Below are positions 7,259-29,316 of a DNA stretch of 32,000 nt, one piece after another. Numbering within the stretch: position 1 is the first letter of the stretch; every line of letters starts with the position of its first letter. The notes beneath the pieces are model-generated. The model was not told where the DNA came from. It ran no database searches and was given only the letters and a program-made list of their open reading frames with translations. This stretch comes from Candidatus Omnitrophota bacterium (GTDB taxonomy: Bacteria > Omnitrophota > Gorgyraeia > Duberdicusellales > 4484-171). The DNA is taken from the NCBI GenBank assembly GCA_021735045.1, contig JAIPHU010000010.1:10468-42467 (forward strand), in the 5' to 3' direction. The position numbers and the translations under genes were made by a program.

Positions 7259-8182
7259 ATGGTTATTACCAAACATTTAGATGAAATGACAAAGATTTAT
7301 CATTATCCAGTTATGTGGCAAGAAACGCTTGATAGCTTACAACTTTCCAAGCGAGAAGTTATCATAGATTGTACGACAGGTTTGGGTTCACATGCTTACA
7401 AAATGATTCAAGCAAGCCAAAAAAATTCCTTTTACATAGGTATAGATAAAGATAGCCAATCTTTAAAAGAAGCTTATTGGAAACTTAAGCCTTTTGAAGG
7501 TAGGTTTGTTTTGCTTCAAGAAGATTTTATGCATTTAGATAAAGTTTGTCACGAGTTTAATATTGAAAAAGCTGATATTTTCTTTTTTGATTTAGGAATA
7601 TCGACCTATCAATTAGCTAATCCTCAAAGAGGTTTTAGTTTTTTAGGTGAAGGCGCCTTAGATATGAGGATTAATAAAGATAATTTTCTTACTGCTTTTG
7701 ATTTAGTAAATAATTTAAGCGAGCCAGAACTAATCAACATATTTAAAAAATTTGGAGAAGAGCGTTATTCAAGACGAATCGCTCATGCGCTAGTAACTTA
7801 TCGGCGCCAAAAATCAATTGCGACTACTACACAATTGGCTGAGATTATTGAAAAAAGCGTGCCGGTAAAAGCGCGTTTTGGGAGAATTCATCCAGCTACT
7901 AGAGTTTTTCAAGCCTTAAGGATTGCGGTTAACCGAGAGCTAGAATCTCTTAAAATTGCCCTGCCCAAAGCGATTAACTTTTTAAAAAAAGGGGGCAGGA
8001 TAGGCGTTATATCATTTCATTCATTAGAGGATAGAATAGTTAAACATACGTTTAAAGATTTTGCTTCACGAAATTTATTAAAAATTATTACCAAAAAACC
8101 TAAAAGGCCGACAGAAAAAGAAAAAAAGATTAATCCAGCTTCGCGTTCGGCAAAATTGCGGATAGCAGAAAAAATTGGGTAA
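7259..8182 (+). CDS. rsmH: 16S rRNA (cytosine1402-N4)-methyltransferase
   Basis: HYPVM motif, DCTTGLGSHA SAM-binding motif, FDLGISTYQL and SFHSLEDRIVK. It sits in the canonical position after mraZ. Confidence 0.95.
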   Translation: MVITKHLDEMTKIYHYPVMWQETLDSLQLSKREVIIDCTTGLGSHAYKMIQASQKNSFYIGIDKDSQSLKEAYWKLKPFEGRFVLLQEDFMHLDKVCHEFNIEKADIFFFDLGISTYQLANPQRGFSFLGEGALDMRINKDNFLTAFDLVNNLSEPELINIFKKFGEERYSRRIAHALVTYRRQKSIATTTQLAEIIEKSVPVKARFGRIHPATRVFQALRIAVNRELESLKIALPKAINFLKKGGRIGVISFHSLEDRIVKHTFKDFASRNLLKIITKKPKRPTEKEKKINPASRSAKLRIAEKIG

Positions 8183-8540
8183 AATGCGCAAAATATCACC
8201 ATTAATATTGGTATCTATTATATTTATTTTTCTTTCAGTGTATCTTCATCAGAAGGTTCAAATCTATACAGCTGCTTTTTATCTTCAAAAAAATTATAAT
8301 AACTACCAGGAACTTGTTGCAAAAAAAGATTATTTGATGCATAATTTTTCAAAGAAAGTGTCTTTATCCCACGTAAGCAAATGGGTTTTGGCAGAAAAGC
8401 TTTCCTCGCCGGGAAAAGAAAAGCTTCTGGTGTTTAAGCCTAACGACCAAGTTGAAACTGATACGGTTTCTAAAAAATCATTTTTCAAACGGATCAGGTC
8501 TTCTGCTTCAATCGCTGACGTTTTTGCAAAAGAGCGGTAA
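8175..8540 (+). CDS. ftsL: FtsL-like cell division protein
   Basis: 121 aa with a single N-terminal TM (ISPLILVSIIFIFLSVYL) followed by a helical segment. It lies between rsmH and ftsI. The call is positional and architectural, with no sequence signature. Confidence 0.6.
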   Translation: MGKMRKISPLILVSIIFIFLSVYLHQKVQIYTAAFYLQKNYNNYQELVAKKDYLMHNFSKKVSLSHVSKWVLAEKLSSPGKEKLLVFKPNDQVETDTVSKKSFFKRIRSSASIADVFAKER

Positions 8541-16698: not shown

Positions 16699-17733
16699 AT
16701 GAAAATATTATTAGTAACTGAAAGAAGTGCAGGGCATGTTTATCCGGCTTTAGCTATTGGCGAAAAAATTAGAGAAAAAAATTTAGGAAAAAATATAATT
16801 TTTTTCTTCACTAGTTCAAAGTTTTTTAAAAAGTATATTAAAAATAAAGGCTATCCTGTGTTAGGATTAACTTTTAGGTTTAGGAATATTTTAGTTGATT
16901 TATTTTGTCGTTTTATTGAGTCTATCTATATCCTTGTTAAGGTTTCGCCAGATAAAGTTATTGGATTTGGGGGAAGAGACAGTTTGTTTTTAGTTCTGTT
17001 TAGTTATATGCTTGGTAAGGAAACTTATATCTATGAACCGAATGCAGAAATGGGTAAGTCCAATAGATTAATCTCTCGTTTTATAAAAAATGTGTTAAGA
17101 GGTATCCCTCCTTTTGAGAAAAAACAAAATCACAAAATTATTGGGATTCCTTTAGGAAAAAACATAGTAAAAAAAGGAAAAGAAGAATTAAAAGAAAAAT
17201 TTAACTTTAACCATAAGCCGGTTGTTTTTTGTTTTGGAGGCAGTCAAGGTTCTCAGTTTATAAATGATAGTTTTTTTAGTTTTGTAGAAAAATATAATAA
17301 TGGTTCATACCAGATAGTTCATATTACCGGAAAAAAGGATTATTTTAGGATGGTTGATTTTTATAAAAAGATAAAGAACAATAAAGTGGTAAAGGACTTT
17401 TATCAAGATATGTCTGATTTTTATAATCTAGCTGATCTTATTTTGTCTAGAGCAGGGGCTTTGACTTTAGCCGAGATTTCTTTTTATAATATTCCCGCAA
17501 TTTTAATTCCTCATCCCAAAGCTTTTGGCCACCAGAAAACAAATGCAAACTATCTAGGAGATAAAGGTGGTGCAGTTGTATTTGAGCAAAATAACTTTGA
17601 TTCTAAAAAATTTGAATTTTATTTAAATAAATTAATTCAAGATGGCAGAACTCGGCAAAAAATGAAAAATAATCTTAAAGATATAACTATTGGAGTAAAC
17701 TATGAGAAATTTTCTTTTAATTATATTAGTTAA
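16699..17733 (+). CDS. murG: undecaprenyldiphospho-muramoylpentapeptide beta-N-acetylglucosaminyltransferase
   Basis: GT28 fold with FGGSQGS, SRAGALTLAEI and the N-terminal GH motif, after ftsW. Confidence 0.9.
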   Translation: MKILLVTERSAGHVYPALAIGEKIREKNLGKNIIFFFTSSKFFKKYIKNKGYPVLGLTFRFRNILVDLFCRFIESIYILVKVSPDKVIGFGGRDSLFLVLFSYMLGKETYIYEPNAEMGKSNRLISRFIKNVLRGIPPFEKKQNHKIIGIPLGKNIVKKGKEELKEKFNFNHKPVVFCFGGSQGSQFINDSFFSFVEKYNNGSYQIVHITGKKDYFRMVDFYKKIKNNKVVKDFYQDMSDFYNLADLILSRAGALTLAEISFYNIPAILIPHPKAFGHQKTNANYLGDKGGAVVFEQNNFDSKKFEFYLNKLIQDGRTRQKMKNNLKDITIGVNYEKFSFNYIS

Positions 17734-18517
17734 TTTGTTTTTGTTATCCGGGGAGTTTTTATTAAATCCTCAAGATGCTGATGCAAAAGTTAAAGATTTT
17801 AGGCAGTTAAAAAGTAGTCATTTTATTATAAGTTACTCTCCTGAAGTCAAAAGGCCATATGTAACTGAGGTTAAGAAAAAGGCTGAAAAATTTTATCGTG
17901 AAATCACTCAAGAGTTTCATTTAGTTCGGGATGAACTTTGGCTTTGGGATAATCGGGCCAAAATTTTTATAGCTGAAAACAGAGAAGAATACCTTGATAA
18001 TTTTAATTGCCCTAATTGGTCGTCTGCCTGTGTAAACTATAGAGAAAAAAGGATCTACACATACCCCGATCAGAAAGATTTTATATCAACTCTAGCTCAT
18101 GAGTTGACTCATATTGTCTTTCGGGAGTATGTAGGAAGGCAAATCTTGCCGCTTTGGCTGGATGAAGGGATGGCTATGTATACAGAAACAAAATTTTCTG
18201 ACTCAAGATATAAAAATTATTCTAGCCAAATTAAAAAAAAGATAAAAAATAACAGCTTTATCCCTTTTGATGAATTAACAACTATAAATGCACGAGTTTT
18301 AGGAGAAAAACCATCCTCTTATGTAGATACTTTTTATCTTCAATCTTTTTCTCTGATAAATTTTTTGATTGAAAACTATAAAAAACATCGTTTTTCACAG
18401 CTTTTGTGGAACTATAAAAATGAATCAGATATAAAAAAAGCTTTGTCTAAAACTTATTATCAACTTAATAATTTAGAAGATTTAGAAGAAAGATGGAAAA
18501 ACTATTATCTAAAGTAA
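17702..18517 (+). CDS. secreted zinc metallopeptidase, peptidase-MA (gluzincin)-like
   Basis: Signal peptide MRNFLLIILVNLFLLSGEFLLNPQDADA. HExxH motif (LAHELTHIVF) plus a downstream Glu (WLDEGMAMY), as in Peptidase_MA_2-type proteins. It overlaps murG by 32 nt and murC by 25 nt. Confidence 0.7.
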   Translation: MRNFLLIILVNLFLLSGEFLLNPQDADAKVKDFRQLKSSHFIISYSPEVKRPYVTEVKKKAEKFYREITQEFHLVRDELWLWDNRAKIFIAENREEYLDNFNCPNWSSACVNYREKRIYTYPDQKDFISTLAHELTHIVFREYVGRQILPLWLDEGMAMYTETKFSDSRYKNYSSQIKKKIKNNSFIPFDELTTINARVLGEKPSSYVDTFYLQSFSLINFLIENYKKHRFSQLLWNYKNESDIKKALSKTYYQLNNLEDLEERWKNYYLK

Positions 18518-19878: not shown

Positions 19879-20698
19879 GCTAGGGCAATTGACTACTCTA
19901 GGAATAGGAGGAAAAGCTAAATATTTATTTTTAGTTAAAAATAGCGCCGAGTTATCAAGACTATTGAAAAAAATAGGAAATCAATTCTATATTTTAGGGA
20001 ATGGCTCAAACCTATTGATAAAAGATATATTAATAAAAAAACCAGTTATAAAATTAACAGATGAGTTTGGGTTGATAAAACAGAAAGGCAATCTTTTAGA
20101 AGTTGGTTCTTCAACTTTACTTTCTTTTCTGGTAAAATACTGCATTGAACATCATCTCGAAGGTATAGAAAATTTAGCTGGTATTCCGGCAACAATTGGT
20201 GGCATGCTTTCATCCGCAGCTTCATCATTTGGGACTAATATCTTTGATTGCTTAGAAGAAGTCGAGGTCATAGACAGAAAGGGTAGTATCTACAGGCTCA
20301 AGAAAGACGAAATTAATTATGGTTATAGATACTCTAGCCTTAGAGATTTAATAATAGTTAAAGGTTACTTTAATTTTTCTAAAGAAGGCAAGAAAATCAA
20401 AGAAAAAATAAAAAATATAGTTAAAAAAAGGATTGCTTTACAGGATTTTTCTTTTCCCAGTTGTGGCTCGGTTTTTAAAAATCCCGCTTCTCTGGCTGCA
20501 GGAGCTTTGGTTGAACAGGCTGGTTTGTCCGGAAAGCAAAAAGGGGATGTTAAAATTTCCAATAAACATGCTAACTTTATCCTAAACCTAGGAAGAGGCT
20601 CTTATAGCCAGGCAGATTATTTAATTAAACATGTGAAGGAAGTTATTTACCAAAGAGAAGGGATCATTTTAGAGGAAGAAGTCAAAAGATGGAGTTAA
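19838..20698 (+). CDS. murB: UDP-N-acetylenolpyruvoylglucosamine reductase
   Basis: FAD-binding region LGIGGKAKYLF ... ILGNGSNLL, and C-terminal GSVFKNP and ISNKHANFILN. Confidence 0.93.
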   Translation: MMNSKKIKLKQNVELGQLTTLGIGGKAKYLFLVKNSAELSRLLKKIGNQFYILGNGSNLLIKDILIKKPVIKLTDEFGLIKQKGNLLEVGSSTLLSFLVKYCIEHHLEGIENLAGIPATIGGMLSSAASSFGTNIFDCLEEVEVIDRKGSIYRLKKDEINYGYRYSSLRDLIIVKGYFNFSKEGKKIKEKIKNIVKKRIALQDFSFPSCGSVFKNPASLAAGALVEQAGLSGKQKGDVKISNKHANFILNLGRGSYSQADYLIKHVKEVIYQREGIILEEEVKRWS

Positions 20699-21621
20699 CC
20701 AATATAAAAGTAGGTGTTTTGGCTGGAGGAGTTTCTGAAGAAAGGGATATTTCTTTGCTTTCAGGGAGGCAAGTTTTTTCTGCCCTGGAGAGAAAAAATA
20801 TCAAAGCAGAGTTTATTGATATAAAAACCTCAGAAAATAATGAAATAAAAAAAATAATAAAAGCAGCCCAGATAGACCTAGCCTTTATTGCTTTACATGG
20901 TTCATTTGGGGAAGACGGTAAGATTCAAACTATACTTCAAGAGATTCCTTTAGCCTATACCGGTTCAGGCCCAAAAGCAAGTCTTTTTGCAATGGATAAA
21001 ATAATAGCAAAAGAAAGATTTAGCCAAAGCGGAGTTAAAACTGCTTTTTATCGTTTAGCGACAGCTAAAAACTATAATTATAAAGGTCTTACATACCCGG
21101 TTGTAGTCAAACCTTCTCATTCAGGATCAAGTTTTGGCATTTCAATCGTAGATAGTAAAGAAAAAATCAAAGAAGCTCTCAAAGAATCTTTTAAGTTTAG
21201 TGAATCAGCAATAATCGAAGATTATATTAAAGGCCGGGAGTTAACAGTAGGGATTTTAGGAGAAACTCCTTTAGCAGTAGTTGAGATTGTTCCCCAAGGA
21301 AAATACTTTGATTTTAAAAATAAATATACAAAAGGAAATTCTGTTTTTGTTGTACCGGCTAAGCTTGATAAAAAAATATACAAGCAACTACAGCAATTGG
21401 CTTTGCAGGCTCATAAAGCATTAGGTTGTCGGGATTTTTCTAGAGTTGATATAAAATTAAAGGGCGATTTGCCTTATGTTTTAGAGGTTAATTCAATACC
21501 GGGGTTAACTGAGCGTAGCTTGTTACCGCTTTCAGCTTCTGCTTGTGGTATAAGTTTTGATGAGTTGATTTTTATTTTTGTAGAAAAAGCATTATCAAGA
21601 AGAAAAAAAGTTTTGAAATAA
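20689..21621 (+). CDS. ddl: D-alanine--D-alanine ligase
   Basis: VLAGGVSEERDISLLSG, ALHGSFGEDGKIQ, ATP-grasp VVKPSHSGSSFGI, and LEVNSIPGLT. Confidence 0.95.
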   Translation: MELTNIKVGVLAGGVSEERDISLLSGRQVFSALERKNIKAEFIDIKTSENNEIKKIIKAAQIDLAFIALHGSFGEDGKIQTILQEIPLAYTGSGPKASLFAMDKIIAKERFSQSGVKTAFYRLATAKNYNYKGLTYPVVVKPSHSGSSFGISIVDSKEKIKEALKESFKFSESAIIEDYIKGRELTVGILGETPLAVVEIVPQGKYFDFKNKYTKGNSVFVVPAKLDKKIYKQLQQLALQAHKALGCRDFSRVDIKLKGDLPYVLEVNSIPGLTERSLLPLSASACGISFDELIFIFVEKALSRRKKVLK

Positions 21622-21645: not shown

Positions 21646-22455
21646 ATGGCTAGAAGAAGAAAAAACAAAAAAATACAGTTATCTAAATTTTTCACAAATA
21701 AATTCTTTATTGGGGCTTTTATATTTTTTTTAGTTGCGGGTGTTTTTCTTTTGATTGGATATCAAATCTATACAGCAGATTTCTTTGAGATTAGTAAAAG
21801 AAATCTAAAATCTAATTTAAATATAAATAAAAACATAATAAGTAAAATAGAAGGAAAATCAATTTTTGAACTTGATTTAAATAAGTTACATTCTTATTTA
21901 ATTCGGCAGTATCCTGAATACAAAGAGATTAAAATTTTAAAAAAGTTTCCTAATTTTATTGAAATTCAGATTGAAAAAAGAAAACCAATTGCCCAAATAC
22001 GGGCTAAAAACTTTTATTTAGTTGATAGAGATGGGGTGGTAGTTAGTCAAGGTAAGAGCAATTACTTTGAAGGTTTTCCGATTATAACTGATTCGTCATT
22101 TAGACAGTATTTGCCCAAAGGTAAAAATGTTTATAGCCGGGAATTAACAGCTGCTTTTAGATTAATACAAGTTATTAAAGATGAAAACTTATTAGAGCTA
22201 ATTAATTCGCTTGACTCTGACTACCAATTTAAGTTAAAAGATATTAATATATCTTCTCCAGAGACGATATATTTTTATTTGACAAATCAAAAGTATTATC
22301 AGAAAAGGATTAAAGTTATTTTAAATAGGCAGGAATTAAAAGAAAAAATCAGCCTTTTGAAGGAACTTATAAAACAAAAATTAAAAGATAAACTATCTCT
22401 AATAAGATATATAGATTTTCGTTTTCAAAAAGTTGCGGTGGGTTTTAAAAGGTAG
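21646..22455 (+). CDS. ftsQ: cell division protein FtsQ (POTRA domain)
   Basis: Basic N-terminus, a single TM (FFIGAFIFFLVAGVFLLIGY), then a POTRA-like segment (YPEYKEIKILKKFPNFIEIQIEKRKPIAQI). It lies between ddl and ftsA. Confidence 0.8.
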   Translation: MARRRKNKKIQLSKFFTNKFFIGAFIFFLVAGVFLLIGYQIYTADFFEISKRNLKSNLNINKNIISKIEGKSIFELDLNKLHSYLIRQYPEYKEIKILKKFPNFIEIQIEKRKPIAQIRAKNFYLVDRDGVVVSQGKSNYFEGFPIITDSSFRQYLPKGKNVYSRELTAAFRLIQVIKDENLLELINSLDSDYQFKLKDINISSPETIYFYLTNQKYYQKRIKVILNRQELKEKISLLKELIKQKLKDKLSLIRYIDFRFQKVAVGFKR

Positions 22456-22457
22456 TT

Positions 22458-23606
22458 ATGAAAGCTTTTTGTGCAGTGGTTCTAGAAAAAGATAAAGCTT
22501 TTCTTTCTTTTGCCGGCCTTAAAAAAGGTAGCTTAGAGCTTCTAGCCGAGAAAGAACTACTTATCTTAAACAATGAAGATTTTCTTCAACGATTAAGAAC
22601 TAATGCCGAAAAGATAGAGCAACTAATAGCAGATTTTGAACAAGAATATTCCCTTTCTTTAAAAAAAATATTTATGGAGTTGCCTTCAGGCTTAACTAAA
22701 GAAGTCGGAGTGCAAGAAACAATAGTTTTGCCTAAAAAAAAGAAGGTTACTCCGTCAATTATTAATTCAGCCAAAAAATATATTGAAAATAAATTTCTTG
22801 AATGGAATCATCACTGCATACATCATATTGTCCTAGACTATCAAACAGAGGGCATAAAGGCTAATGAAGCACCTTTAGGGGTTTTTACTAATAAAATAAA
22901 GTTTAATTCTTTGCTTATTTATATAAAAGAGAGTTTTTATAAAGAAGTTGCGGATATTTTTTATAATATGGAAAAAGATTTTTTTGGTTTTGTAGCACAT
23001 AAAATAAGCGTGCTTTCACAAGGTTTTAAGTGTTTTAAAGGCAGCCAGGTTGCAATTAGCATCAATAGTTTTAATAGTTATGTGGGGATAAAAGATGAAA
23101 AAGGAAAAGTATCTGAAAAAGAATTTAATTTTTCTCTAGAAAAAATTATTAATGAGTTATCGAAACAGTATGCAATATCATCTGTAATCTCGGGGCAGCT
23201 ATTAAGGCGCTATGGGTCTTTTAAAGAAATTCCTTATTTTAAAGAGATAACTATAAAAAAAGAAGAAAGTTACCTAAACTTAAGTACCAAGGCTTTAGGT
23301 AATTTTTTAAAGAGAATTTTTTCTAGCAACATAAAACCGATTATAGAGGAAGCCTTAAGCGATATTAAAGAAAGCAAAAGAGAAACAACTATTTTTTCCT
23401 TTATCGGCCCTTTAACTATAAAAGATGGTTTTTATGGCTATGTTAAAAAATTATTGCCTCATAAGGTGGAGGTACCTGTTTATAAATGTAGCTCTTCTGC
23501 TTTTGGCTGCATAAAATACGGTTGCTCTAAGTCTTTAGAAAAAGCTTATGAGAAAAAAGAGTCACTATTAGGAAGAATCAAAAGAGTTTACCATGAATAT
23601 TTTTGA
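22458..23606 (+). CDS. ftsA: divergent FtsA-like actin-fold protein, ATP-binding motifs apparently degenerate
   Basis: It follows ftsQ immediately (2-nt gap). The central segment (IHHIVLDYQTEGIKANEAPLGVFTNKIKFNSLLIYIKESFYKEV) follows the FtsA 'p..y.vD...i.nP.G' pattern. The C-terminal LLGRIKRVYHEYF resembles the amphipathic membrane-targeting helix of E. coli FtsA (IKRLNSWLRKEF). The DxGT and DxGGGT phosphate motifs are not recognisable. Confidence 0.65.
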   Translation: MKAFCAVVLEKDKAFLSFAGLKKGSLELLAEKELLILNNEDFLQRLRTNAEKIEQLIADFEQEYSLSLKKIFMELPSGLTKEVGVQETIVLPKKKKVTPSIINSAKKYIENKFLEWNHHCIHHIVLDYQTEGIKANEAPLGVFTNKIKFNSLLIYIKESFYKEVADIFYNMEKDFFGFVAHKISVLSQGFKCFKGSQVAISINSFNSYVGIKDEKGKVSEKEFNFSLEKIINELSKQYAISSVISGQLLRRYGSFKEIPYFKEITIKKEESYLNLSTKALGNFLKRIFSSNIKPIIEEALSDIKESKRETTIFSFIGPLTIKDGFYGYVKKLLPHKVEVPVYKCSSSAFGCIKYGCSKSLEKAYEKKESLLGRIKRVYHEYF

Positions 23607-23630
23607 TTTGACTAATTATAAAAAATAGTT

Positions 23631-25523
23631 ATGGATAATGATATATATCAGGATTTTGTAAAAAAGTTTAGGGTTGCACTTACAAATTGCTCAGTTTATT
23701 TTTCAGAACATCCTATTTTTTTTCAGTCGATAGAAAGTTTTAAAGAGAATATTGACTTACTTACCCGGGATAAATCTTTTCTTTTAATCCAAGTAAAACC
23801 AGAGGCCTTAATCATCAACGGTAAAAATTTAGAGAAAAGAATTTTATATAAAGATTTAGCTACTTTTTTTCATAGAAAAAAAATTAAAAGCATAAAGATT
23901 AAAAAAGAAACTACTTTTCAGGAGTTATCTGAATTTTTACTCAATGTTTCACAAACTGAGAAAAATATTTTATCTAAAGGCGGGATGAAAAAAATATTAA
24001 AAGATAAGGGAGTAAAAAACATTGAAGTTGATGAGCTTGACTATTCGCAATTAATAAAAGGAGAAGGTAAAGAAGTAAAAGATGTCTGGAGTTATCTTTT
24101 AAGTTCTGAACAAATACAAGATAATAGTAAAGTTGCTAGTAGTAGTTTCGTTGATAAATTTATGGTAACAACAAAAAAATATGGAGTTAAAGAGATATTA
24201 GAAGATAAGAAACTATCTAAACAGCTATTTGATTTATTCGCAAAAATTGAAGATAAAGATAATTTTAAAAAGGTTGTTAGAAGTTTAGCCCAATCTATTC
24301 TAGATGGTAAGGCATTAGATAATATAACAAATAAAGGGCAACTTAAAAGTTTGTTTTCTTACCTAGATCCGCAAGATTTAGTTCAGTTTTTAACGAAATT
24401 TTTACAATCTGAAAAACGTTTTGATCCAGTATCATTTAGGATATTTTCTACTTTATTATCTCCTGATTTTCATAAGGCAGCTGCAAATAAATTGGGCAAA
24501 GAAATTAAAAAAGAAAAAAGCAAATTTAATATAGGCCAGATTAAAAATTTGCTTACATCTTTTGATGATAAAAATATTATTTCTATTTATCAAAAAAATC
24601 TATCAGTGAATGGTTTTAACAGTGTTAGTAAAGATTTTTTTTCTTTTGATTATAAGCATCTTCACCAAAATTACCGCCTAATCCTTTTAGATCTATTTTT
24701 TTATGAGATAAATCCGGCTCGTCTTGAGTTGATTTTAAAAAAAATAAACGCGGAAATCGAAAATGATTTTTTTAAAAATATAGATTTTATTAATAAATTT
24801 GCAAAAGTATATATTGAAAAACCAGCAAGTATAAAATTAAAAAGGCTTCAGAGCATAGCAAATAAGATTTGGTTTCAAGCTGAAAAAAACATTTTTGATA
24901 TAGATGATTTCAGAAAGTTATTTTTTTTAACAAAAATCCTAGATTCAACCACTTTAAATCTTTCTTTTTATTTAGATAAAATTGAAAAAAAGCAGTTTAA
25001 TCCCCTAGTGTTTAGGCTTTTTTTTAAGTTTTTTCCCCGACAAGCAGATAAAATATATCTAAGAATTAAAAGCAAAACTACTGATTTTAATTTTTTGAAA
25101 AAAATTATATCAGATTTAAAGTTAAGTAATAACCAGCTTGCTTTAGAGGTTTTTAAGAACTTATTTCAGTTGGTGCCGGTTCCGGTAAAAATTGATATAT
25201 TGGATACAATCAAAGGTTACTCTCGGTGTGATCCAGATTTTATTTTACCTTTAACCAATAACCAAAACTTCCATCTTCGTAAAAAATCAATTGAGGTGGG
25301 AATAAAATTTCCCCAACTCCATAAACAAATAGCCAAAAACCTTTTTTCTTTACCGAACTATTTTGGCTTGAATTCCAAGACTATTTTGGAGAATTTAGAG
25401 ATAATCGATCAAAATTATATTTCCCAGGTTAAACTATTTATAGAAAAGCTGGCAAAAGCGAAATTTTTTTGGAATAGGCAAGTAAGAAAAAAAGCTAAAC
25501 AAATATTAGAGAGCCATTTATAA
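23631..25523 (+). CDS. hypothetical 630-aa protein, N-terminal domain paralogous to the downstream HD-GYP protein
   Basis: Long uninterrupted ORF with the same codon style as its neighbours. Residues about 9-130 align by eye with residues about 8-130 of ORF 25547..26881 (F[VL]K, Y-x3-HP-x-F-x2-S, K-I-x2-I-x-[FI]-K ... EL). No tubulin/FtsZ GGGTGSG signature is present. HEAT-like helices near the C-terminus are possible but weak. Confidence 0.6.
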   Translation: MDNDIYQDFVKKFRVALTNCSVYFSEHPIFFQSIESFKENIDLLTRDKSFLLIQVKPEALIINGKNLEKRILYKDLATFFHRKKIKSIKIKKETTFQELSEFLLNVSQTEKNILSKGGMKKILKDKGVKNIEVDELDYSQLIKGEGKEVKDVWSYLLSSEQIQDNSKVASSSFVDKFMVTTKKYGVKEILEDKKLSKQLFDLFAKIEDKDNFKKVVRSLAQSILDGKALDNITNKGQLKSLFSYLDPQDLVQFLTKFLQSEKRFDPVSFRIFSTLLSPDFHKAAANKLGKEIKKEKSKFNIGQIKNLLTSFDDKNIISIYQKNLSVNGFNSVSKDFFSFDYKHLHQNYRLILLDLFFYEINPARLELILKKINAEIENDFFKNIDFINKFAKVYIEKPASIKLKRLQSIANKIWFQAEKNIFDIDDFRKLFFLTKILDSTTLNLSFYLDKIEKKQFNPLVFRLFFKFFPRQADKIYLRIKSKTTDFNFLKKIISDLKLSNNQLALEVFKNLFQLVPVPVKIDILDTIKGYSRCDPDFILPLTNNQNFHLRKKSIEVGIKFPQLHKQIAKNLFSLPNYFGLNSKTILENLEIIDQNYISQVKLFIEKLAKAKFFWNRQVRKKAKQILESHL

Positions 25524-25546
25524 AATATAAATAGGCCGTTAAAAAG

Positions 25547-26881
25547 ATGAAAGAAAAAATTGAAAAATTTTTAAAAAGTTTATCTTCTTGTTTTCAATTG
25601 ATACAGATGTATGGGGGGAATCATCCAGAATTTGAGAAATCTCTCTTGCAACTATACCAAGAGTTAAAACAGATATTAGAAGATCAAGATCAAATAACTA
25701 TAGCACTAGTGGCTGGGGAGCTAACAAGCGGAGAACATATTTTTTTTGATTTAACTAAAAAATTGACAACTTTAATCAATAAATTAAAAAATAAAGGTAT
25801 TGAAAAAATAACTTTTAAAGAGAGCGTTGAAAAATATGAGTTAGAAAATCTTTTTTTATTTTTTCTGACTCCAAAAAAAGAAAGCGAAGGAATTGATAAT
25901 TACTTTAAGCTACATCAAATAAAGAATATTCAAATCGGCAAAATAAAAGGGTTTGGTCCCAAAAAGAACAAAAATGAAAAAATTTCTTTTAAAGAACCTT
26001 TTGGCCGGCTATACGCAGAGTCTGTGGATAACTTAACGTCTTCTTTAGGTGATTTTATCCAAAAACAGTTATTGGATTTTACAAAATTTGGGTCAGTTGT
26101 AAACAATCTGATGCAAGGGATTGGTTACCACTATCAGGAGATATTAAAATTATCTAGGTTAAAAGGCAAAGATGCCGTTACTTTTTCTCATCTTTTAAAT
26201 GTTTCTTTTTTGTCGATACATTTTGCTAAATTTTTAGGTTTTACTGATTCTGAGGCCAAAGAGATCGGCCTGGCTTCTCTTTTTCATGATATTGGCAAGC
26301 TTTATATTTCAAATAAAATACTTAAAGGGGGAGAACTTATCGATAAAGAATTTGAAGAAATTAAAAGCCACTCACTTTTAGGTGCAGAAATTCTTCTTAA
26401 TTTTGTTGATAAGATAGGAGAATTGCCGCTGGTGGTTGCTCTTGAGCATCATCTAAAGTTTAATTCAGGAGGTTATCCTCGATTAAAATTCCCTCGGCGC
26501 CTTCATCTTATATCAATGTTAGTTTCACTTTGTGATGTCTACGATGCTTTAAGCCAAAGGCGTAGTTATAAAAATAGTTTTCCTCCTGAGCGAATTTATA
26601 AGATTATGGAAGAAGGCAGAGGCTCACAGTTTCATCCTGTACTTTTTGATAATTTTTTTAAATTTATTGGAGTTTGGCCAAATGGAACAGTTGTTGTATT
26701 AAGTAATGATAAGGTTGCTCGGGTTAAGAGTCAAAATCCCGATGATATTTTTTCTCCTGAGGTCGAGATAGTTTCTGATTCTTCGCATAAACTCATCAAT
26801 ATAGGAAAAAATGGACTAGATCTAAAGATCAAAAAATCTCTCAATCCCTATAAAGAAGGAGGAAAGTATTTAAATTCATAG
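25547..26881 (+). CDS. HD-GYP domain protein (putative c-di-GMP phosphodiesterase)
   Basis: HD motif LFHDIGK and HHxxxxxGxGYP motif (EHHLKFNSGGYPRL), with CDVYDALSQRRSYK following. The N-terminal regulatory domain is shared with the upstream ORF. Confidence 0.88.
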   Translation: MKEKIEKFLKSLSSCFQLIQMYGGNHPEFEKSLLQLYQELKQILEDQDQITIALVAGELTSGEHIFFDLTKKLTTLINKLKNKGIEKITFKESVEKYELENLFLFFLTPKKESEGIDNYFKLHQIKNIQIGKIKGFGPKKNKNEKISFKEPFGRLYAESVDNLTSSLGDFIQKQLLDFTKFGSVVNNLMQGIGYHYQEILKLSRLKGKDAVTFSHLLNVSFLSIHFAKFLGFTDSEAKEIGLASLFHDIGKLYISNKILKGGELIDKEFEEIKSHSLLGAEILLNFVDKIGELPLVVALEHHLKFNSGGYPRLKFPRRLHLISMLVSLCDVYDALSQRRSYKNSFPPERIYKIMEEGRGSQFHPVLFDNFFKFIGVWPNGTVVVLSNDKVARVKSQNPDDIFSPEVEIVSDSSHKLINIGKNGLDLKIKKSLNPYKEGGKYLNS

Positions 26882-26944: not shown

Positions 26945-28069
26945 ATGATTAAAAAACCAATAATTCATATTTTTCATATTTCTGATTTTGGTGGGCACAG
27001 CCAAGCTGCCTTAAACATTAAAGAGGCCATTTTAGCTAAAGATAACAATGCTAAAGTTGTAAATTTAAATAGTTTCCAGTATTTCTATCCTCGTACAGAA
27101 AAAGTAGTGGATGCTATTTATAAACTAGTAATTAAACAAATTCCTTCTCTTTGGGGCAAAGCTTATGACCATGAAACAGTAGTTAAGCGCCTCAGGCCTT
27201 GGCATAAAGTTGTTAATCATATTTGTTTTCCCAAATTACGTAAATATATAAAGTTTGAAAAACCAAATTGTTTTATTACCACTCAAGCTTTTCCTTGTGG
27301 AATAATTGCTGATTATAAAAAAAAGCATAAGCCAGACATACCCTTAATTGCTGTAGTTACTGATTTTCATCCGCATCGTTTTTGGGTGCATTCATCTGTT
27401 GATCATTATGTAGTTGCTTCAGACGAAGCAAAAAATACATTAGTTAAAGAAGGTGTAGCCGAAGATAAGGTATCAGTTTTTGGAATCCCTATATCTATCA
27501 AGTTTATTAAAAGCTCTTTTGACAGTGAGCCTATAGAAAAATTAGGCCTTTCTTCTCAGCGAAAATCAGTTCTAGTTATGGGGGGTGGCTTAGGTATCGG
27601 GCCAATTGAAAAAATTGTAAGAAATCTTGATCAATTAAACCATGATTTTCAACTAATTGTAGTCTGTGGTAAAAACAGATTTCTTTACCGCAAATTAGAA
27701 AAAATAAAAAATAAAATAAAAAAACCACTATTTATTTTTAGCTATGTGGAATATGTAGATAAAATTATGGATTTTTCTGACATTATTATTACTAAAGCCG
27801 GTGGGATTACTGTATCTGAGGCTTTAGCAAAAAGAATAGCAATAATAATTACAAACCCCATCCCCGGCCAAGAAGAGTTGAACGTTGATTTTTTAATTAG
27901 GCGCAATGCAATTATAAAAGCAGATGGCTTTAAACAAATAAATAAAAATGTAGCTAGCTTAATTGAAAATTCCGATAAGCTGAGATTTTTTAAAAAAAAT
28001 GCTGAAGAAAATTCCCAGGGAAACTCTTCAGCCAAAATTGCTGACTTAATCTTTAAATTTATTAACTGA
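26945..28069 (+). CDS. MGDG-synthase / UgtP-like diacylglycerol glycosyltransferase (GT28)
   Basis: N-terminal MGDG_synth-type region (ISDFGGHSQAALNIKEAI, VTDFHPHRFWVH..VDHYVVAS) and C-terminal GT28 region (VMGGGLGIG, ITKAGGITVSEALA, PIPGQEELN). Confidence 0.85.
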   Translation: MIKKPIIHIFHISDFGGHSQAALNIKEAILAKDNNAKVVNLNSFQYFYPRTEKVVDAIYKLVIKQIPSLWGKAYDHETVVKRLRPWHKVVNHICFPKLRKYIKFEKPNCFITTQAFPCGIIADYKKKHKPDIPLIAVVTDFHPHRFWVHSSVDHYVVASDEAKNTLVKEGVAEDKVSVFGIPISIKFIKSSFDSEPIEKLGLSSQRKSVLVMGGGLGIGPIEKIVRNLDQLNHDFQLIVVCGKNRFLYRKLEKIKNKIKKPLFIFSYVEYVDKIMDFSDIIITKAGGITVSEALAKRIAIIITNPIPGQEELNVDFLIRRNAIIKADGFKQINKNVASLIENSDKLRFFKKNAEENSQGNSSAKIADLIFKFIN

Positions 28070-28905
28070 TGTACTATCTCTTTATCTTAGGAAAAATAAT
28101 CGCTTTAGCCGGGCCGCGGGCGGTTTCTTATCGAATTGCTAAGTTTTTTGCTTTACTTCATTGCTGCTTTTCCAAGAAAGATAGGGAGGCAGTCCTTTAT
28201 AATTTAGGACCTTTGGTCAGACAAAGACAAAGAAAAAAAAAGGTGGCAAAAAAGGTTTTTATTAACTTTGCCTACTATCTTACTGATTTTTTTCGTTATT
28301 CAAGATTGACCAAAAAGTTTATTAAAAAATACGTTAGTTTTGGAGGCCTAGATTTAGTTGATAAAATAGTCAAGGAAAAAAGAGGAGCGATACTGCTTAC
28401 CGCTCATTTAGGTAACTATGAATTAGGCGGGGCGGTTATGTCGTTGCTTGGCTATCCTCTATCAGTTGTTGCATTGCCGCATCTTGACCTGCGTACTAAT
28501 ATTTTTTTTAACCGGCAACGCAAGAGGGTGGGTATAGATGTTATTCCTACTGGAGTTGCAATAAAAAAAACCATCAAAGCTTTGAATCAAGGAAGGCTTT
28601 TGGCCTTACTTGGTGATAGGGATTTTTCACATTCCGGGAGGCGGCAAAAAGTCTTTTCGCGTTTTGCAGAAATTCCGCGGGGAGTGGCTTTTTTTGCAAA
28701 AAAGACCGCTGCAGCAGTAGTCCCTACTTTTTTTGTCCGAGAAAACAAATATCATTACCGGCTTATCTTTGAAAATGAGATTGAGTATGATCGGGAAAAT
28801 GAAAATGTTGAAGAAGATATACTTCAAAAATATGTAGCTGTATTAGAAAAATACTTAAAAAAATATCCCGACCAATGGTATTTATTCCAAAAATACTGGC
28901 AATAA
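28069..28905 (+). CDS. LpxL/HtrB/PatA-family lysophospholipid/glycolipid acyltransferase
   Basis: HX4E active-site motif in TAHLGNYELGG, an N-terminal hydrophobic anchor and a GDRDF segment. Its start overlaps the upstream stop by 1 nt (TGATG). Confidence 0.85.
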   Translation: MYYLFILGKIIALAGPRAVSYRIAKFFALLHCCFSKKDREAVLYNLGPLVRQRQRKKKVAKKVFINFAYYLTDFFRYSRLTKKFIKKYVSFGGLDLVDKIVKEKRGAILLTAHLGNYELGGAVMSLLGYPLSVVALPHLDLRTNIFFNRQRKRVGIDVIPTGVAIKKTIKALNQGRLLALLGDRDFSHSGRRQKVFSRFAEIPRGVAFFAKKTAAAVVPTFFVRENKYHYRLIFENEIEYDRENENVEEDILQKYVAVLEKYLKKYPDQWYLFQKYWQ

Positions 28906-28944: not shown

Positions 28945-29316
28945 ATGCAATATAGTTTTGAAAATTTAGAAGTATACAAAGAAGCCCGTGAGTTTAGAAA
29001 GGAAATGTATAAACTAATTAAAGAATTACCTGCTAAAGAAAAATATAATCTTGTAAGCCAAATAAGAAGGGCTTCACTCTCTTTAACTAATTGCATAGCA
29101 GAAGGCCACGGCCGTTACCATTATCAGGAAAATATTCAATTTTTACGTCAATCTAGGGGTTCATTGGAAGAATTAATTGATGATTTAAACACTTGTATTG
29201 ATGAACAATATCTGGAAGAACCTAGATTAAATAAATTAAAAGAAAAAGCTTATGAAGTCTTAAAGAAACTCAATGGCTACATCAAATATTTACGCAGTCA
29301 AAAAAATAAAAATTAG
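28945..29316 (+). CDS. four-helix-bundle protein (23S rRNA intervening-sequence protein / Avd family)
   Basis: 123 aa. FENLEVYKEAREFRKEMYKLIKELPAKEKYNLVSQIRRASLSLTNCIAEGHGR ... QFLRQSRGSLEELIDDL matches the TIGR02436/PF05635-type pattern (F..L.v...A......y.....P..E.y.L..Q.rRAa.Si..NiAEG.gr ... a.GS..E). Confidence 0.9.
   Translation: MQYSFENLEVYKEAREFRKEMYKLIKELPAKEKYNLVSQIRRASLSLTNCIAEGHGRYHYQENIQFLRQSRGSLEELIDDLNTCIDEQYLEEPRLNKLKEKAYEVLKKLNGYIKYLRSQKNKN

Follow-up and report, generated by a model that had tools for sequence, protein, structure and literature searches.

In bacteria the string ftsQ–ftsA–ftsZ ranks among the most conserved of gene orders. The FtsZ-less phyla Planctomycetota and Chlamydiota, of the Planctomycetes–Verrucomicrobia–Chlamydiae (PVC) superphylum, have dcw genes (those for division and the cell wall) without ftsZ and are also without FtsA. 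Omnitrophota belong to the same superphylum and likewise have dcw genes without ftsZ, but they retain, in a single cluster, ftsA, ftsQ, ftsW and ftsI as well as the full set of mur genes. The stretch of 32,000 nucleotides analysed here (the window; contig JAIPHU010000010.1 of assembly GCA_021735045.1) comes from a Candidatus Omnitrophota bacterium, and in it ftsA is followed by two genes that encode a protein of 630 amino acids (aa) and a 444-aa HD-GYP protein. The described proteins closest to the latter are PmGH, a c-di-GMP phosphodiesterase from Persephonella marina (PDB 4MCW), the cGAMP-specific V-cGAP3 (5Z7C) and PA4781 (4R8Z), which it resembles over the ~190 residues of the catalytic HD-GYP domain. 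It differs from PmGH in its N-terminal input domain, which matches no solved structure or Pfam family, is not a REC domain and is unlike the N-terminal domain of PmGH in sequence; it also has an obligate neighbour gene that bears a paralogous copy of this N-terminal domain. The two genes appear, from their sequences, to be a self-contained and usually translationally coupled cyclic-di-GMP (c-di-GMP) signalling module. The definition of this solenoid/HD-GYP module, with its shared N-terminal domain, is new and describes a new cyclic-dinucleotide signalling architecture.

Two proteins with a common N-terminal domain

The 444-aa protein was predicted to be an HD-GYP phosphodiesterase in the initial annotation, and its identity as an HD-GYP protein is borne out by its Pfam matches, by the presence of all metal-binding and signature residues and by the match to PmGH. 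Its HD-GYP profile, compared with the PDB, matches PmGH (4mcw, E = 1.5e-38), V-cGAP3 (5z7c, 1.6e-26) and PA4781 (4r8z, 5.6e-21). Residues H215, N218, H247, D248, K251, H275, E300, H301, H302, G309-Y310-P311, D330, R338 and R339 are invariant in 13 HD-GYP homologues. They include every ligand of the HD metal site, with the pattern H…HD…H…HH…D (H215, H247, D248, H275, H301, H302 and D330), and the GYP motif of the HHExxDGxGYP region (E300-H301-H302…G309-Y310-P311). The active site is thus predicted to be intact, and its substrate is presumed to be c-di-GMP, or possibly another cyclic dinucleotide.

Searches of Pfam, NCBIfam and the PDB gave no sequence match to the 630-aa protein. Its AlphaFold2 (AF2) model (predicted local distance difference test, pLDDT, 83.7) consists of an α/β domain of 160 residues and then ~460 residues of α-solenoid. 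A Foldseek search of the PDB with the solenoid returned generic HEAT/ARM scaffolds only, with template modelling (TM) scores of <=0.26. In the model the solenoid resembles these scaffolds (the A subunit of PP2A, importin-β and designed armadillo proteins) in its architecture of stacked helical hairpins, but it differs from them in that low structural similarity, in having no HEAT/ARM match by sequence and in being fused to an N-terminal domain of signalling type. The window protein is also without a Pfam HEAT/ARM match, whereas paralogous partners in two other loci, L092 and L097, match HEAT_2 (2e-15). In these two loci the first pair is immediately followed by a second, paralogous one (L092 14224-17560, L097 4773-7909); it comprises a HEAT_2-positive solenoid of 611-621 aa and an HD-GYP protein of 425-492 aa, both with the shared N-terminal domain. 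The possibility that the last 470 aa of the 630-aa protein represent a degenerate HD-GYP domain was considered and rejected (hhalign probability 2%).

The N-terminal domains of the two proteins are paralogous. Residues 4-141 of the 630-aa protein align with residues 3-138 of the HD-GYP protein with an hhalign probability of 98.4% (E = 1e-14). Because a direct BLASTP comparison of the two N-termini gave only E = 0.15, profile–profile comparison was needed to show this homology. The shared domain, of ~135 aa, has no match in the PDB, and the HD-GYP copy matches no Pfam family at E < 0.001. In the 630-aa protein its invariant residues include Y23, H27, P28, H81, K84, K86 and an L-D-Y-S-Q-L motif at 136-141.

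An exhaustive HMMER search with a profile of the 630-aa family gave 320 representative clusters (50% identity) at E <= 1e-30 and 2174 at E <= 1e-3. The best 150 matches are all full length, at ~640 aa. The protein thus belongs to a large, uniform and unannotated family of α-solenoid proteins. The window member is 100% identical to K9L84_00850 from a Candidatus Omnitrophica metagenome-assembled genome (MAG). Family loci range from 27% to 68% in G+C content. Members have been deposited under Candidatus Aminicenantes (3), Deltaproteobacteria (1) and Babeliales (1), and several genomes of the window clade under 'uncultured Planctomycetia'. Either these bins are mislabelled or the module also occurs outside Omnitrophota.

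Genomic context of the pair

The genes surrounding the 630-aa family were surveyed in JGI metagenomes, with the family itself as anchor, which gave 24 loci. In all 22 of the metagenome loci that have downstream sequence, the gene after the 630-aa homologue is an HD-GYP homologue. The same is true of all loci of the window clade with a 630-aa gene and downstream sequence, and of L005, L006, L112 and L113. In most loci the reading frames of the two genes overlap by 1-20 nucleotides (nt). ftsA lies upstream in just one of the 24 loci (L087), and 13 loci for which 5 kb or more is available upstream contain no ddl, ftsQ or ftsA there. Other contexts are mnmA-nadA-thiI (L005/L006), genes for CRISPR adaptation (L112) and glutamine synthetase (L113). 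In 5 of the 24 loci a homologous gene of 310-330 aa lies directly upstream of the pair; its L102 member, the one checked with Pfam, is a PAS-GGDEF diguanylate cyclase. Extra HD-GYP genes also cluster near the pair. A literature search found no paper that links HD-GYP with a HEAT-repeat partner.

A different picture is obtained in the clade of the window. Here, in 16 of the 18 distinct loci, the pair comes directly after a degenerate ftsA, and because the string ftsA-630aa-HD-GYP recurs in this way it is not a chance pattern of open reading frames (ORFs). These clade loci were collected with Ddl as anchor, so that the sample is biased toward linkage with the dcw cluster. Conservation of the string across the lineage is therefore partial: it is syntenic in one clade, and linkage to the dcw cluster is not a general feature of the lineages that carry the pair when these are sampled through the 630-aa gene.

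The junction downstream of ftsA is variable in composition. The full order ftsA, solenoid, HD-GYP, REC, GAF-HD-GYP, glycosyltransferase is found in L011, L012, L015, L040 and L111 (CP070807.1). The window has no REC or GAF-HD-GYP gene at this point. In L021 (CP070797.1) the pair has been lost and the REC and GAF-HD-GYP genes are the sole remnants, and in CP070684.1 (L010) ftsA leads straight to the glycosyltransferase, with the pair, REC and GAF-HD-GYP all absent. The full order is inferred to be the ancestral one, with differential loss in each genome. Genes farther downstream (glycosyltransferase, LpxL-like, GT2, PCMT and a small exporter) are as syntenic as the pair. As PCMT, the exporter and GT2 are unrelated to it in function, gene order in this clade is conserved regardless of function.

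The end of the dcw cluster

The gene upstream of the pair was called ftsA in the initial annotation, a call that is barely justified by sequence and is upheld by structure and position. The 382-aa product has no Pfam match and falls short of the curated FtsA thresholds, with 19.4 bits against TIGR01174 (cutoff 175.85). Its AF2 model (26 homologues) has a pLDDT of 91.5 and a predicted TM score (pTM) of 0.88, and shows the actin-like fold with the 1C (SHS2) subdomain that is specific to FtsA. The top 19 Foldseek matches in the PDB are all FtsA, with TM scores of 0.63-0.73 at ~12% identity; PilM (~0.5) and MreB rank below them. The best sequence match of the clade profile to the PDB is likewise FtsA (7q6f, E = 0.002), and PF02491 is precomputed on two clade homologues. 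The protein is thus similar to the FtsAs of T. maritima (1E4F/4A2A), S. aureus (3WQT) and E. coli (7Q6D) in fold, including the 1C subdomain (TM ~0.7), in the place of its gene after ftsQ and in its C-terminal amphipathic helix, which ends in …EYF.

This membrane helix is retained in the alignment with canonical FtsAs, where the C-terminus ends …RIKRVYHEYF and the segment …LLGRIKRVYHEYF aligns with the canonical C-terminal helices; the gene lies directly after ddl-ftsQ. In the same alignment all three nucleotide-binding motifs are lost: phosphate-1 (DxG[TS]xK), phosphate-2 (DxGGGTT) and adenosine (GGGA) are replaced by …VVLEKDKA…, …ISINSFNSY… and …FIGPLT…. Unlike the known FtsAs, the protein therefore combines ~12% identity and scores under every family cutoff with the loss of these motifs and a next gene that is not ftsZ. 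We read it as an FtsA orthologue that, judged from the model, is structurally genuine, degenerate in sequence and membrane-anchored, and that probably cannot bind nucleotide. The degree of FtsA degeneration in the window clade is new. Six Omnitrophota FtsAs from outside this clade were also aligned (L022, L082, L056, L037, L027 and L036, of which L022 and L056 are verified by Pfam). All six have a degenerate phosphate-2 loop, reading DVGKDVT, DIGKDIT or YISYPTT in place of DxGGGTT, so that erosion of nucleotide binding seems to be phylum-wide and most extreme in the window clade.

FtsZ was searched for with a hidden Markov model (HMM) of 14 sequences, namely E. coli FtsZ and 13 FtsZ genes recovered from related loci. 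As a query the E. coli sequence recovers 14 genuine FtsZ genes, at identities of 32-54%, which validates it. With filters off, the HMM gave no match in the six frames of the whole window, and the signature GGG[TS]G[TS]G is found in no frame of it. The initial annotation was accordingly correct that the 32 kb contain no ftsZ, and also that neither the 630-aa nor the 444-aa ORF has a tubulin/FtsZ signature; neither has a tubulin match in Pfam or NCBIfam. No FtsZ was found in ~49.5 kb of contig JAIPHE010000002.1 (104 kb; GCA_021735365.1).

In the Ddl-anchored survey of dcw clusters, one genome was taken per GTDB species and 10 kb were read downstream. ftsZ follows ftsA in 0 of 27 Omnitrophota dcw loci (18 of the window clade and 9 of other Omnitrophota) and in all 14 loci of other phyla (Verrucomicrobiota, Lentisphaerota and others) that have an FtsA gene and enough downstream sequence. 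No relic of FtsZ was seen in or near any dcw locus surveyed. In the nine loci of other Omnitrophota a canonical FtsA is succeeded by unrelated genes; the three checked (L022, L029 and L056) pass the Pfam cutoffs for SHS2_FTSA and FtsA. The Omnitrophota dcw cluster thus ends at ftsA across the phylum, regardless of the gene that comes next. That ftsZ is missing from the end of the cluster, as first noted, is confirmed; the accompanying claim that its slot is taken by the 630-aa and HD-GYP genes is not, as ftsZ follows ftsA in no sampled Omnitrophota dcw locus and therefore nothing replaced it here and there is no slot to fill.

Omnitrophica have been named among the FtsZ-less PVC phyla, with FtsZ absent from 4 of 5 genomes and FtsA kept in 3 of those 4 (Pende et al., 2021, PMC8178401, and its Supplementary Data 2). 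Together with the counts of 0/27 and 14/14 loci, this makes the earlier suggestion of a lineage without FtsZ plausible, and we infer that the phylum is probably FtsZ-less. This reading is phylum-wide and already published, hence not new. The published accounts disagree, as papers of the Devos group (Rivas-Marin et al., 2016, 2017) say the opposite, that Omnitrophica encode FtsZ, on the evidence of genome OLB16. In addition, Omnitrophota are grouped with phyla that have conserved dcw genes by Henriques et al. (2025), while the account of Omnitrophota by Seymour et al. (2023) mentions neither fts genes nor c-di-GMP.

It could accordingly be supposed that ftsZ simply has another location, both in this genome and in Omnitrophota at large, that division is canonical and that the local gene order says nothing about it. 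The OLB16 report and the grouping by Henriques et al. favour this, absences in MAGs are inherently weak, and the FtsZ search covered ~49.5 kb of the genome only; three closed chromosomes of the window clade are available (CP070807.1, 1.82 Mb; CP070684.1; CP070797.1). The supposition nevertheless seems doubtful. The genomes tabulated by Pende et al. contradict it, as does the lack of a relic in or near the dcw loci, and the eroded nucleotide-binding motifs of all aligned Omnitrophota FtsAs fit a changed partnership. In OLB16 ftsZ adjoins ftsA, unlike the 27 Omnitrophota loci examined here, which makes the assignment of that genome to the phylum doubtful.

One locus outside the dcw survey should be mentioned here. 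In L100 (JGI contig Ga0116202_10002718, 68% G+C) a stretch of 72 aa at nt ~6466-6681 matches positions 124-195 of the FtsZ HMM. It lies in a frame without an ORF call, in a 310-nt gap directly after the HD-GYP gene, and reads VAVVIEPLIAEGLLRCRNAREGMARLRAHVDTAIAI, in alignment with the FtsZ consensus …vvt.PF.FEG..r…A.eG…L….DtlI.iPNd.Ll. The match reaches 27 bits, whereas controls (reversed sequence and random sequence of 68% G+C) give 8 bits at most. The sequence suggests a relic of ftsZ, here next to a solenoid/HD-GYP pair of a distant organism; genes in the neighbourhood have no relation to division. An assignment of the match to a 651-aa ORF downstream of the pair was rejected, since the match lies in another frame within the intergenic gap; that ORF has a sub-threshold GH127-like Pfam match only.

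The features of the window are listed in Table 1. The initial annotation gave ddl-ftsQ-ftsA followed, after a gap of 24 nt, by the two ORFs of the pair, and its coordinates were exactly confirmed. The window has a G+C content of 31% and 32 ORFs of at least 100 aa, every one on the + strand. Pfam and NCBIfam identify a near-complete dcw cluster in the order mraZ, mraW, a 121-aa ORF, ftsI, murE, murF, mraY, murD, ftsW, murG, a Peptidase_MA_2 gene, murC, murB, ddl and ftsQ. The ftsQ product also matches POTRA_1 (7e-4, 20.2 bits), slightly under the 23-bit cutoff. The gaps are 2 nt between ftsQ and the 382-aa ORF, 24 nt between the latter and the 630-aa ORF, and 23 nt between the two genes of the pair. 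On the 3' side of the HD-GYP gene are the glycosyltransferase, the LpxL-like gene, a four-helix-bundle gene, a GT2 glycosyltransferase, PCMT and a small exporter. The order glycosyltransferase then LpxL-like is also found in L001, L004, L008, L017, L019 and L111, among others.

Table 1. Coordinates of the dcw-end genes, the pair and its domains within the window
Feature	Position	Strand	Basis
ddl (D-Ala-D-Ala ligase), last enzymatic dcw gene	20689..21621	+	Pfam Dala_Dala_lig_C 7e-51; NCBIfam NF002378 8e-99
ftsQ	21646..22455	+	Pfam FtsQ_DivIB_C 1.2e-8 (above cutoff); placed after ddl
382-aa ORF, read as highly diverged FtsA	22458..23606	+	AF2 fold, Foldseek, profile against PDB
630-aa ORF	23631..25523	+	α/β N-terminal domain and α-solenoid
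630-aa protein, N-terminal α/β domain, aa 1-160	23631..24110	+	paralogue of HD-GYP N-terminal domain (hhalign)
630-aa protein, all-helical α-solenoid, HEAT/ARM-like, aa 170-630	24138..25523	+	AF2, ~25 helices; no catalytic motif
444-aa ORF, HD-GYP protein	25547..26881	+	Pfam HD, HD_5
HD-GYP protein, N-terminal domain, aa 1-138, common to 630-aa protein	25547..25960	+	hhalign
HD-GYP protein, catalytic domain, aa ~200-365	26144..26641	+	Pfam HD 6.6e-12, HD_5 1.1e-10 (both above cutoffs)
HD-GYP protein, C-terminal extension GVWPxGT…P.VEIV	26642..26881	+	conserved alignment columns
MGDG-synthase-like glycosyltransferase and LpxL-like acyltransferase	26945..28905	+	Pfam MGDG_synth 1.2e-26, Lip_A_acyltrans 4.6e-37

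Some neighbouring genes deserve a brief comment. The Peptidase_MA_2 gene (zinc metallopeptidase-like, window 17702-18517) lies between murG and murC, overlaps both and has the same dcw place in L001, L003 and L004. The 121-aa ORF (8175-8540) is in the ftsL position, in the interval between mraW and ftsI, and has no family match. The four-helix-bundle gene (23S rRNA intervening-sequence protein, TIGR02436, Avd-like; 28945-29316) lies between the LpxL-like and GT2 genes, and its position is empty in the relatives L001, L004 and L111. In L111 (CP070807.1, 1-8000) ddl-ftsQ-ftsA is separated from the mur genes, with genes for a PAS histidine kinase and a response regulator, together with two small ORFs, ahead of ddl. 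Beyond the 3' end of the window (L114 12289-20657) are a TPR protein, a ShlB/POTRA transporter of two-partner secretion and the start of a 3832-aa protein that has no Pfam match.

Relation of the pair to cell division

On balance we favour the reading that the HD-GYP protein is a phosphodiesterase whose partner, itself non-catalytic, serves as scaffold or regulator, that the two form a self-contained module and that this module stands beside the dcw cluster in one clade as part of a long syntenic block. The two proteins would be made in fixed proportion, and their homologous N-terminal domains would either bring them together or let them compete for one ligand or partner. The phosphodiesterase would then be positioned or gated by the solenoid, in the role of scaffold or regulator. 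The place of the pair beside the dcw cluster, confined to one clade, is best explained as inherited synteny.

Several points weigh against this reading, in addition to the doubts over the absence of FtsZ given above. The association, or competition, of the two proteins through their N-terminal domains is conjecture. The substrate could be 3'3'-cGAMP and not c-di-GMP, V-cGAP3 being the second-best PDB match of the enzyme. In most loci of the clade the gap between ftsA and the 630-aa gene is -4 to 39 nt, and this order is retained even where identity of the 630-aa protein falls to 24-27%. A promoter and terminator scan found no terminator-like site at the gene junctions of the window, including that between ftsA and the 630-aa gene; promoter-like sites were fewer in the window than in shuffled sequence, so the scan is uninformative. 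HD-GYP genes of three architectures persist at the ftsA junction. Finally, in a neighbour-joining (NJ) tree, which is rough and poorly resolved, the dcw-linked copies form several deep or basal branches and not one derived clade, from which dcw linkage may be ancestral for most of the family.

Some of these points are also those on which a link to division would be built, in which an FtsZ-less clade with a degenerate FtsA would co-transcribe the pair with ftsQ-ftsA and so couple c-di-GMP to a modified divisome, for example by docking of the solenoid on FtsA or FtsQ. The operon-like spacing after ftsA over deep divergence and the basal dcw-linked copies in the NJ tree keep this proposal in play. 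It can also draw on the retention of REC and GAF-HD-GYP at the same junction in L021, and on the fact that every locus with a Pfam-negative FtsA is in this clade and that the pair adjoins no canonical FtsA. Moreover, c-di-GMP enzymes act on the divisome elsewhere, as in the case of the E. coli diguanylate cyclase YfiN/DgcN, which influences cell division (PMC4992967). The precedent extends to a c-di-GMP enzyme affecting division; YfiN/DgcN is a cyclase that acts via FtsZ and ZipA and is not in the dcw cluster, whereas the window enzyme is a phosphodiesterase in a cluster from which ftsZ is missing, and its link to division is hypothetical.

The proposal is, however, unlikely. Sampled through the 630-aa gene the pair is beside ftsA in a single locus of the 24; in CP070684.1 it is cleanly absent from the ftsA junction, and in CP070797.1 it has been lost. 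The co-occurrence with degenerate FtsA counts as one phylogenetic event and does not provide independent replicates, and PCMT, the exporter and GT2, which are functionally unrelated, are equally syntenic. A fuller version, in which the divisome is rebuilt on an FtsA that is membrane-anchored and nucleotide-blind, the pair shares a transcript with ftsQ-ftsA, the solenoid docks on FtsA or FtsQ, local hydrolysis of c-di-GMP times septal peptidoglycan synthesis and dcw linkage is ancestral for the whole family, strikes us as distinctly unlikely; if true, it would represent a second-messenger-gated, FtsZ-independent division system.

That FtsZ is functionally replaced by the 630-aa protein, acting itself in a cytoskeletal or constriction role, is very improbable and close to refuted, since the position of its gene directly after ftsA and the size, conservation, uniform length and lack of annotation of its family are outweighed by the absence from it of any GTPase, tubulin or other nucleotide-binding motif, by a fold (α-solenoid and a small α/β domain common to a signalling enzyme) that is not the Rossmann-like GTPase with C-terminal domain of FtsZ, by its constant pairing with HD-GYP, mostly far from the dcw cluster, and by the loss of its gene after ftsA in CP070684.1, which retains the same degenerate FtsA.

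Of the initial interpretation as a whole, the absence of ftsZ from the end of the dcw cluster and the synteny within the clade stand, while the occupied slot and the tie of the pair to division are not supported; nothing found here indicates that the pair stands in for FtsZ or has a role in division. With the module seen instead as a probable c-di-GMP phosphodiesterase and its solenoid partner, two matters of wider interest emerge. In the window and ~27 related loci the dcw cluster stops at ftsA, FtsA is retained and its nucleotide-binding motifs are eroded, which makes Omnitrophota a useful intermediate case in comparison with the FtsZ-less phyla that are also without FtsA. The solenoid family, for its part, is strictly paired with HD-GYP through a shared, uncharacterized N-terminal domain, a relationship that is biochemically testable.

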